Source of the DNA: Candidatus Micrarchaeota archaeon
GTDB lineage: Archaea; Micrarchaeota; Micrarchaeia; Anstonellales; Anstonellaceae
Assembly: GCA_026396415.1 (NCBI GenBank)
Contig: JAPLWX010000028.1
Coordinates: 1,922-65,921 of the forward strand
DNA: 64,000 nucleotides
Direction: 5' to 3'
Shown here in pieces: positions 40,850 to 42,753 of the stretch. Position numbers and translations under genes: made by a program. The notes beneath the pieces are model-generated. The model did no database searches. It was not told where the DNA came from and worked only from the letters and a program-made list of their open reading frames with translations. Each line of letters begins with the position of its first letter. Position 1 is the stretch's first letter.

Positions 40850-41758
40850 ATGAACAAGCGCGCTCTGATTTACGGCATTTCCGGCCAGGACGGCTCCTAC
40901 CTGAGCGAGCTGCTGCTTTCCAAAGGCTATGAGGTGGCCGGCACAGTGCGCAACCATGGGAAGGAAACGCTGCCGCCTGTTTCCAGCAAGGCAAAAATCT
41001 ACCGCGCCGACCTAGCAGCAAAGCCTGCGGGTTTTCTCCGCCCCATTGATGATTTTGAGCCCGATGAGGTTTACAACCTGGCAGGGATCCATCTGCAGCA
41101 CATCACCAGTCAAAACGCCCGGCTTGCGGAAAAAGTGAATGCCGCCGCCCCGGAATCGATGCTTGCCCATATCCATAGCCACTGCGCAATGGCGAAATTC
41201 TTCCAGGCATCTTCTGCATATGTATTTGGCGACAAGGCCGGCCGCGTGGATGAAAGCACATGCCCTGCCCCAAATTCCGTCTACGCCAGGACCAAGCTTG
41301 CGGCGCAGCAAAGCGTCCTGCGCTATCGCCTGCTGGGCATGTTTGCGGCAGCAGGCATACTTTTCAACCACGAATCTCCGCTCCGCAGCGAGGATTTCGT
41401 GACCAGGAAAATCTCAGCGTACGTGGCAAGGGAGAAACTTGGGCTCAATGGCGGCAAGGCGCTGATGCTCGGCAACCTGGACGCAAAGCGCGATTGGGGG
41501 TTTGCAGGGGACTATGTGGAAGCGATGTGGCTCATGCTGCAGCAGAAGCAGCCGGATGATTATGTCATTGCAACCGGCGAGCCGCACAGCGTGCGCGAAT
41601 TCTGCCAGGAGAAAAGCATGTCCGCTCCGACCCCGCCCTTGTCCGGCCCGAGTCGGGCTTCATGCTCGCAGATGCAAGCAAAGCGCGGGAAAAGCTTGGC
41701 TGGAAGCCCAGGATGGGATTTTCCGGCCTGGTCCGGCTCCTGGTGGATACTGATATAA
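40850..41758 (+). CDS. divergent GDP-mannose-4,6-dehydratase-like enzyme (C-terminus out of frame)
   Basis: IYGISGQDGSYL, NHESPLRSE and [11 protein letters not shown] blocks. After CQE the conserved GMD C-terminus ([19 protein letters not shown]) continues in the -1 frame. Confidence 0.55.
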   Translation: MNKRALIYGISGQDGSYLSELLLSKGYEVAGTVRNHGKETLPPVSSKAKIYRADLAAKPAGFLRPIDDFEPDEVYNLAGIHLQHITSQNARLAEKVNAAAPESMLAHIHSHCAMAKFFQASSAYVFGDKAGRVDESTCPAPNSVYARTKLAAQQSVLRYRLLGMFAAAGILFNHESPLRSEDFVTRKISAYVAREKLGLNGGKALMLGNLDAKRDWGFAGDYVEAMWLMLQQKQPDDYVIATGEPHSVREFCQEKSMSAPTPPLSGPSRASCSQMQAKRGKSLAGSPGWDFPAWSGSWWILI

Positions 41759-41795
41759 AAAGGCTTGGTAGGAAAAATGACGGTTGTGATATAGG

Positions 41796-42683
41796 ATGAA
41801 AACAGCACTCATAACAGGGATTACCGGCCAGGACGGCTCCTATCTTTCGGAATTCCTGGTTTCCAAAGGTTACAGCGTGATTGGCATTGTCCGCCGCTCA
41901 AGCAGCATCGAGAACCGGACAAGGCTCGACCGTCTCCCGCCCGAAGCCCGCAAGAACATCAAGCTCCAATACGGCGACATGACGGATGCATCCTCGCTCG
42001 TGGGCATAATCCGGAAACACGAGCCGCAGGAGATTTACAATCTTGCGGCACAGTCCCATGTCAAGATCAGCTTTGAGCAGCCGATCTACACAGGCGAAGT
42101 CACTGGCCTCGGCGTGCTTAATATCCTTGAGGCCATACGCATCTCGGACGCGGATACCCGCTTCTACCAGGCATCGTCTTCAGAGCAATTCGGAAAGGTA
42201 GCAGAGGCCCCTCAAAGCGAAAAAACCCCGTTCCACCCCAGAAGCCCATATGCAGTATCCAAGGTTTTTGCACATTGGGCGACAGTCAATTATCGCGAGG
42301 CTTACGGCATGCACAACTCATGCGGCATTCTTTTCAACCACGAGTCGCCCCGCAGGGGCGAAAATTTCGTGACGCGCAAAATCAGCCTTGGCGTGGCCAA
42401 GATAAAGCTGGGCCTGGCGCCCAATCTCGTGCTAGGCAACCTGGACGCAAAGCGCGATTGGGGGTTTGCAGGGGACTATGTGGAAGCGATGTGGCTCATG
42501 CTGCAGCAGAAGCAGCCGGATGATTATGTCATTGCAACCGGCGAGCCGCACAGCGTGCGCGAATTCTGCCAGGAGTCCGCTCCGACCCCGCCTACTTCCG
42601 CCCGGCCGAGGTGGATTTCCTGCAGGGCGATGCAGGCAAAGCGCGCGAAAAGCTTGGCTGGAAGCCCCAGGTTGGCTTCATAG
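41796..42683 (+). CDS. gmd: GDP-mannose 4,6-dehydratase (canonical, C-terminus out of frame)
   Basis: [23 protein letters not shown] and [16 protein letters not shown] blocks. The conserved C-terminus [28 protein letters not shown] is encoded in the -1 frame through 42744. Confidence 0.65.
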
Positions 42684-42753
42684 AGCTTGCGCGCATGATG
42701 GTGGATGCCGACATGTCCCATATAAAAAAGCTCCATAATATCTAAAACGTCAG

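Follow-up and report, generated by a model that had tools for sequence, protein, structure and literature searches.

Gene conversion between duplicated prokaryotic paralogs is well known, the tufA and tufB genes of enterobacteria being an example, and pairs of gmd and rmd genes have been described from the GDP-D-rhamnose pathway of Pseudomonas aeruginosa and Aneurinibacillus thermoaerophilus (PDB 1rpn, 2pk3, 6x3b). The locus described here has features of both. It lies in a stretch of 64,000 nt from a Candidatus Micrarchaeota archaeon (assembly GCA_026396415.1, contig JAPLWX010000028.1, positions 1,922 to 65,921 of the forward strand), referred to below as the window, and consists of two tandem genes of the GDP-mannose 4,6-dehydratase (GMD) family, copy 1 and copy 2, which share an identical segment and lose their reading frame at the same codon at its end. 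This shared loss of frame is very probably an assembly artefact at a gene-conversion repeat, both genes most likely being intact in the organism.

As in the tuf case, a sharp tract of 100% identity lies within diverged paralogs, synonymous sites in the tract are homogenised within and not between genomes, and the process is recurrent. The Micrarchaeota tract differs in being internal, in covering 100-280 nt, in linking functionally diverged enzymes (a dehydratase and a paralog lacking the catalytic Glu) instead of redundant copies, and in its DPANN host. The mechanism is an ordinary one, conversion between tandem paralogs, found in a new place, and no new kind of mechanism is involved. With the gmd-rmd pairs the locus shares a GMD gene beside a second short-chain dehydrogenase/reductase (SDR) gene in a glycan cluster, and a copy 1 which keeps the Ser/Tyr/Lys triad without the dehydratase Glu, as would fit a reductase acting on the GMD product. 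It differs from them in that copy 1, whose activity is predicted, is far closer to GMDs than to RMDs and belongs to a small clade.

Layout of the tandem pair and loss of reading frame

With their -1-frame ends included, the two genes occupy 40850-41799 and 41796-42745. Both were assigned to the GMD family by PF16363 (E-values of 1.7e-67 for copy 1 and 1.1e-118 for copy 2). The stop codon TGA of copy 1 overlaps the ATG of copy 2 (ATGA), and the same 4-nt overlap was found in three of the orthologous pairs considered below (L088, L094, and L096). An identical stretch of about 140 nt within otherwise diverged sequence had been reported in the preliminary description, and this was confirmed as an exact identity of 141 nt (Table 1). 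Outside this block the copies are only ~42-51% identical upstream and ~59% downstream, and the probability of 141 consecutive matches would be ~2e-14 even with a background identity of 80%.

In both open reading frames (ORFs) the match to GMD in frame 0 ends at ...REFCQE, the last codon of the block, and the C-terminus is found in the -1 frame, as had also been described. For copy 2, frame 0 covers positions 1-262 of PF16363 and the -1 frame covers positions 291-332, with the corresponding values for copy 1 being given in Table 1; TIGR01472 likewise matches copy 2 at positions 1-264 and 293-341 in different frames of the window. The -1-frame C-terminus of copy 1 reads EKHVRSDPALVRPESG..., and the junctions in the window read CCAGGAG followed by AAAAGCATG and CCAGGAG followed by TCCGCTCC. 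The presumed partial product corresponds to the string WEKHVRSDPALV.... Exact protein look-ups of both window ORF products gave no match, and the left junction of copy 2, scanned for as an exact pattern, gave 0 matches in JGI metagenome contigs.

The loss of frame is real in the window; it is not a plain frameshift, since a segment is missing from each copy. Between the N- and C-terminal parts, ~23-28 profile positions of PF16363 are absent. In close homologues (79-85% identity) exactly 12 residues (AFSxxGLDWEKH) separate REFCQE from VRSDP, whereas the window has none; copy 2 is therefore short by 37 nt (~12 conserved codons) and copy 1 by 28 nt (~9 conserved codons). Both gaps begin at the same base, where the identical block ends 141 nt into the repeat, with microhomology of 1 nt only at each junction. 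When restored, the segment aligns without gaps to the solved GMD structures 1n7g and 1rpn. The closest homologues of copy 2 are GMDs of 327-338 aa with up to 84% identity, and those with a named source come from Candidatus Micrarchaeota. A one-base sequencing error was also considered and is ruled out by the 28 and 37 nt that are missing.

Independent assemblies of the same strain

Exact-protein look-ups of neighboring genes led to Logan contigs, each from a k=31 assembly of one public sequencing run, and the runs SRR20698651 and ERR15302186/196/204/206 were compared with the window. Apart from the two junctions, no mismatch was found over ~29.6 kb of non-overlapping sequence (23917-37854, 37892-41759, and 42575-54058). 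A literature search on run SRR20698651 gave no match.

Copy 1 is spanned by contig L005 (Logan ERR15302186_665299), which agrees with the window at all other bases of 39227-41759. Between CCAGGAG and AAAAGCATG this contig holds the 28 nt GCGTTCTCATATGCAGGGCTGGATTGGG, and its reading frame runs uninterrupted (...REFCQEAFSYAGLDWEKHVRSDPALVRP... and ...REFCQEAFSYAGLDWEKHVRSDPALVRPESGF...) up to the contig end. The frame-0 tail of copy 1 in the window (41612-41758) exists only because of the 28-nt gap. For copy 2, contig L001 (Logan SRR20698651_64029, 28,251 bp, seen in three samples) matches the window without mismatch over ~11.5 kb (42575-54058). It starts with TGGGAAAAGCAT followed by GTCCGCTCC..., with WEKH in frame; the window instead reads TTCTGCCAGGA followed by GTCCGCTCC... 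(12 nt divergent). Contig L001 is in frame before the C-terminus, and no single contig spans the gene. Disagreement between the window and the same-strain contigs is confined to the repeat, namely the 28-nt gap relative to L005 and the divergent 12 nt relative to L001. The strings that distinguish the two states are CCAGGAGGCGTTCTCATATG, CCAGGAGGCGTTCTC, and GGATTGGGAAAAGCATGTCCGCTCCGACCCCGCCT for the intact junctions and CCAGGAGAAAAGCATG and CCAGGAGTCCGCTCC for those of the window. Among the matches listed for the N-terminal part of copy 2 against genome contigs, GMDs were 61-66% identical and almost all bacterial.

The ends of the Logan contigs also delimit the repeat. Both L004 and L006 break off at 41500, after precisely k-1 = 30 nt of the block, which shows that the boundary of the repeat exists in the reads themselves. 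At the other side, the opening 30 nt of L001 form a 30-mer, TGGGAAAAGCATGTCCGCTCCGACCCCGCC, that L005 likewise carries in copy 1, and the branch base that follows is T in copy 2 and C in copy 1. These break points would fit one shared repeat of 195 nt (141 + 28 + 26) in the reads.

Orthologous loci

The comparison with orthologous loci which had been proposed was carried out on six related Micrarchaeota-type loci (L088, L089/L090, L091-L093, L094/L095, and L096). In each of the six the tandem pair recurs with both ORFs intact, the paralog measuring 312-324 aa and the GMD behind it 329-338 aa, and the frameshift is therefore not a conserved feature.

These results bear on the possibility that the deletions are real in the strain of the window and that both genes are pseudogenes, either through two independent deletions or through one deletion copied by conversion together with a further loss of 9 nt. 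The deletions are present in the sequence as given and, as conversion acts on this segment, a lesion could in principle pass from one gene to the other. Against this, the same strain, matched with 0 mismatches over ~29.6 kb, shows intact sequence at both junctions elsewhere, and both genes are intact in all six relatives. The deletion lengths differ and yet share a start base exactly 141 nt into the repeat, the junctions offer 1 nt of microhomology only, and two inactivating events without any single-nucleotide polymorphism elsewhere would be improbable. We regard real deletions as improbable, and the suggestion of two pseudogenes found no support in the intact pairs of the relatives or in the independent assemblies, where the missing bases are present.

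Programmed -1 ribosomal frameshifting, which would link the N-terminal to the C-terminal part of each gene, is less probable by far and has hardly any likelihood. The placement of the C-terminus in the -1 frame straight after the same codon in both genes is what such recoding would produce, and the window genes resemble frameshift genes of the dnaX type in this respect. They differ from that type in that the site in copy 2, C CAG GAG TCC, lacks a slippery heptamer of the form X XXY YYZ, and a fused product would be without 9 or 12 residues conserved in homologues and in solved GMDs. The arrangement is also missing from the orthologous pairs (single ORFs in 6/6) and from the independent same-strain assemblies, which are in frame. 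The proposal of a recoding event thus fails on the 9-12 missing conserved codons, the absent heptamer and the orthologous pairs alike.

Recurrent gene conversion between the paralogs

Conversion was analyzed by aligning the pairs of six genomes codon by codon, with the window genes in reconstructed form; the tract is 65 codons long. Upstream of the tract, sequences group by gene type, and the paralogs within a genome are 42-51% identical (27-41% at third positions). Within the tract, within-genome identity of the paralogs rises to 100% in the window and in L089, 89% in L091, 86% in L094, 80% in L096, and 75% in L088, with third-position identities of 100, 100, 80, 75, 57, and 55% in the same order and longest identical runs of 195, 277, 103, 107, 38, and 15 nt. 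Identity of the tract from one genome to another does not exceed 86% (69% at third positions). Within-genome identity exceeds the best between-genome identity in the window (100 vs. 86%), L089 (100 vs. 86%), L091 (89 vs. 77%), and L094 (86 vs. 78%), while L096 and L088 are ambiguous in this comparison. The pattern is that of concerted evolution, in which gene conversion has recurred and its age varies from lineage to lineage. The window tract is probably a real conversion product, and one of 195 nt rather than 141. Its right end is still visible in copy 1 as GTCCGCTCCGACCCCGCC, 18 nt which recur in copy 2 (Table 1).

The clearest relative is L089, where a tract of 277 nt is identical between the paralog and the GMD (5189-5465 and 6183-6459; GMD protein 79% identical). 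This tract takes in the YFRPAEVD...GWK region, whose sequence in the window is specific to the paralog, and GMD-type sequence stands in place of the paralog-specific ...LVRPESGFMLAD.... The replacement points to the GMD as the donor, which we infer to be its most likely role. The homogenised segment lies in the C-terminal part of both proteins, much of which it encodes, and ends ...REFCQEAFSYAGLDWEKHVRSDPA. It is conceivable, though on balance unlikely, that the homogenisation, which has affected this 100-280-nt segment repeatedly and in four or more Micrarchaeota lineages, was selected and is not a neutral by-product of the two genes lying in tandem, a module being kept matched in two enzymes which act on the same GDP-sugar. 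Were this so, the matching might serve substrate hand-off or a hetero-oligomer, for example, and the paralog would be a new, so far Micrarchaeota-associated enzyme modifying GDP-4-keto-6-deoxymannose.

Recent conversion could be doubted if the identical block were itself a product of assembler collapse, the copies in truth being different. De Bruijn assemblers are able to merge near-identical paralogous segments, and at the right-hand border of the block the window can be shown to be in error. Yet Logan contigs of several runs stop 30 nt into the block and one starts at the shared 30-mer, which shows that the tract ends, at least, are truly shared in the reads, and the independently assembled relatives display graded ages (a 277-nt run, runs of 103 and 107 nt, and tract identities of 89 and 86%). 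Bubble merging needs roughly 95% identity or more (an estimate), so a collapse would still imply recent conversion. This explanation is accordingly given very little credence. A repeat of the type made by diversity-generating retroelements was briefly considered and set aside, as the two copies do not differ and it is the conserved enzyme core that the tract codes for.

Gene conversion as the means by which a frameshift spread between the copies had been one of the suggestions made at the outset. Conversion very probably made the block, and it recurs in relatives; the spreading of a lesion is contradicted by junctions which differ (28 vs. 37 nt) and of which neither occurs in other assemblies.

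Assembly at the repeat as the probable origin of the missing segments

A collapsed repeat, another of those suggestions, comes closest to the evidence as regards the loss of frame, given that independent assemblies carry the 28 nt in copy 1 and WEKH in copy 2. The preliminary description had taken missing bases that restore a single frame as the mark of a sequencing or assembly error, and at the level of assembled contigs this is in effect what was found. The 195-nt repeat would have been mishandled so that its first 141 nt were kept in both copies, after which the sequence would jump to the last 26 nt of the tract in copy 1 or the last 17 nt in copy 2, losing 28 and 37 nt and creating two apparent frameshifts. 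The genes themselves are most likely whole in the organism, copy 1 encoding 325 aa and copy 2 328 aa. The 24 nt of copy 2 at tract positions 142-165 would equal those of copy 1.

The length of 141 nt suggests how this could have come about. The default or usual maximum k of MEGAHIT is 141, and neighboring MEGAHIT contigs overlap by k. The error appears to have arisen on the joining of k=141 de Bruijn contigs: where these stopped within the repeat, scaffolding, hybrid joining, or curation may afterwards have linked them, with the right-hand contigs over-trimmed by 28 and 37 nt. A parallel is seen in L090 (ENA GROS21-1 scaffold_8675), where a gap of 100 Ns (3114-3213) lies in the orthologous paralog gene, no gene being called there. 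The contigs on both sides of the gap each extend exactly 55 nt into that species' tract of 277 nt, which is the k-length signature of a k=55 assembler. Contig L095, whose name includes k141, also starts inside the tract of its own species. By analogy, the 141 nt kept in both window copies would fit k=141 contig ends. The likeness to repeat-boundary artefacts of de Bruijn assembly, in which scaffolding then leaves mis-joins or gaps of Ns, consists in contig ends that lie k or k-1 into a repeat (Logan 30 nt, L090 55 nt, the window 141 nt), while the difference is that the join in the window was closed without Ns and with the loss of 28 and 37 nt. No self-similarity was found inside the tract at offsets of 28 or 37, which might have explained a mis-registered overlap, and no other exact 141-nt repeats, as further signatures of k=141, were present within the window.

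Several points weigh against an assembly artefact. The comparison is one of assembled contigs, and the assembler behind the window is a presumed one. Copy 2 is spanned end to end by no independent contig, and its tract positions 142-165 were taken from copy 1. Contig L005 comes from a low-coverage sample, and its tract could mix reads of both copies. A plain k=141 overlap join deletes neither 28 nor 37 nt by itself, so that unequal over-trimming of the right-hand ends is required, a step which could not be reproduced. Lastly, the source sample of the window may differ from the Logan samples, and a strain-specific variant is possible.

An assembly artefact is nonetheless the favored explanation, and it has practical consequences. 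A short conversion tract between tandem paralogs interrupts or corrupts metagenome assemblies in a k-dependent manner, at 30, 55, and 141 nt into the tract in three assemblies. The deposited sequence probably needs the 28 and 37 nt put back, and caution is advised in annotation, where the two "frameshifted" genes should be entered neither as pseudogenes nor as candidates for recoding.

Functional assignment of the two genes

Copy 2 is, as judged from its sequence, a bona fide GDP-mannose 4,6-dehydratase. Its N-terminal part alone (the window ORF) scores 418.2 bits against TIGR01472, above the equivalog cutoff of 415 bits, and the reconstructed gene reaches 482.8 bits across positions 1-341 of the profile. 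Its identity to Micrarchaeota GMDs is 84%. The motifs that define GMDs are a triad of Ser/Thr with YxxxK, a Glu two residues after the Ser/Thr, and the RR loop (PMC3584063). Alignment shows that copy 2 holds QASSSE, YAVSK, and the RR loop, so that the Ser/Thr, the dehydratase Glu, and YxxxK are all present.

Copy 1 falls below the same cutoff, with 215.9 bits for the window ORF and 251.7 when reconstructed. It keeps the Ser and YxxxK and has a Tyr in place of the catalytic Glu (QASSAYVFG), a substitution also present in all six of its orthologues (SSAY or SSGY). Its RR-loop region is shorter and without the Arg pair, and the RR loop is absent from orthologues L088, L089, L091, L094, and L096 as well. 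Against solved structures, GMD chains match copy 1 with E-values of 1e-77 to 1e-53 and RMD chains (PDB 2pk3, 6x3b) with 1e-14 to 1e-13 (4e-14, 8e-14); a placement of copy 1 as the closest relative of characterized RMDs was rejected because GMD chains match far better, and an RMD-like function of copy 1 is putative. Its clade comprises ~23 protein clusters at 45-71% identity, beyond which ordinary GMDs follow, and the members with a source or context are Micrarchaeota. Automated annotation names this clade GDP-mannose 4,6-dehydratase, which is probably wrong. Copy 1 appears to derive from a GMD and is predicted to use the GMD product as its substrate, for example as a 4-keto reductase. The pair was kept in every related Micrarchaeota locus examined and, with the concerted evolution of one of its segments, is of modest interest for archaeal surface-glycan biosynthesis; literature on Micrarchaeota and GDP-mannose held nothing relevant to the tandem pair.

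Table 1. Coordinates of the tandem pair and its parts in the window.
Feature	Position	Strand	Description
Copy 1 frame-0 ORF	40850-41758	+	302 aa
Copy 1 N-terminal part	40850-41611	+	GMD-derived SDR paralog, in frame through ...REFCQE; PF16363 positions 1-264
Identical block, copy A	41471-41611	+	First 141 nt of the putative 195-nt conversion tract
Junction 1	41611-41612	+	28 nt (GCGTTCTCATATGCAGGGCTGGATTGGG) absent relative to independent assembly L005
Copy 1 true C-terminal part	41612-41799	+	Phase from 41611, -1 relative to the N-terminal part; PF16363 positions 288-330; stop TGA 41797-41799
Copy 1 spurious frame-0 tail (KSMSAPTPPLSG...)	41612-41758	+	No family match past residue 257
Right end of tract kept in copy 1 (GTCCGCTCCGACCCCGCC)	41620-41637	+	Same 18 nt at 42575-42592 in copy 2
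Copy 2 frame-0 ORF	41796-42683	+	295 aa
Copy 2 N-terminal part	41796-42575	+	GDP-mannose 4,6-dehydratase; TIGR01472 418.2 bits alone
Identical block, copy B	42435-42575	+	Exact match to copy A
Junction 2	42575-42576	+	37 nt absent, presumably the 28 nt as in copy 1 plus AAAAGCATG
Copy 2 true C-terminal part	42576-42745	+	Phase from 42575; TIGR01472 positions 293-341, E 1.5e-15; stop TAA 42743-42745; identical to L001
Copy 2 spurious frame-0 tail	42576-42683	+	No family match past residue 261

Other features of the window

The pair is operon-like and sits in a surface-glycan cluster with glycosyltransferases, methyltransferases (including a C-methyltransferase-like protein), further SDRs, a phosphomannomutase, nucleotidyltransferases, and a flippase-like protein. 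The segment immediately before the pair, 38019-40758, contains two large divergent ORFs, one of 441-449 aa on the minus strand and one of 443 aa on the plus strand from 39427, for neither of which a Pfam match at E 1e-5 or better was found. In two runs, Logan contigs end at 37854 and the next start at 37892. The 37-nt gap between them is intergenic and contains two hairpins (CATCGCCCGAAGGGCGATG and TGCAAAATGCAACGGCATTTTGCA), which are probably terminators between convergent genes.

Downstream of the pair, a second sugar-nucleotide set is located at 47945-53397. Three SDR/epimerase-like ORFs lie on the minus strand (48910-51672), and the region 51728-53397 adds a GHMP kinase along with a SIS-domain protein. 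The set points to another pathway for a modified sugar, possibly of heptose type. Finally, the region 13866-20102 contains a duplicated unit with ~2.6-kb spacing, the copies of which are 76-94% identical (13973-14272 and 16582-16881, 15121-15600 and 17738-18218, and others), as well as an 82-nt repeat at 16282 and 20021. The G+C content of this region is 0.47-0.51 compared with ~0.56-0.60 elsewhere in the window, and it could represent paralogous genes or a mobile or variable region.

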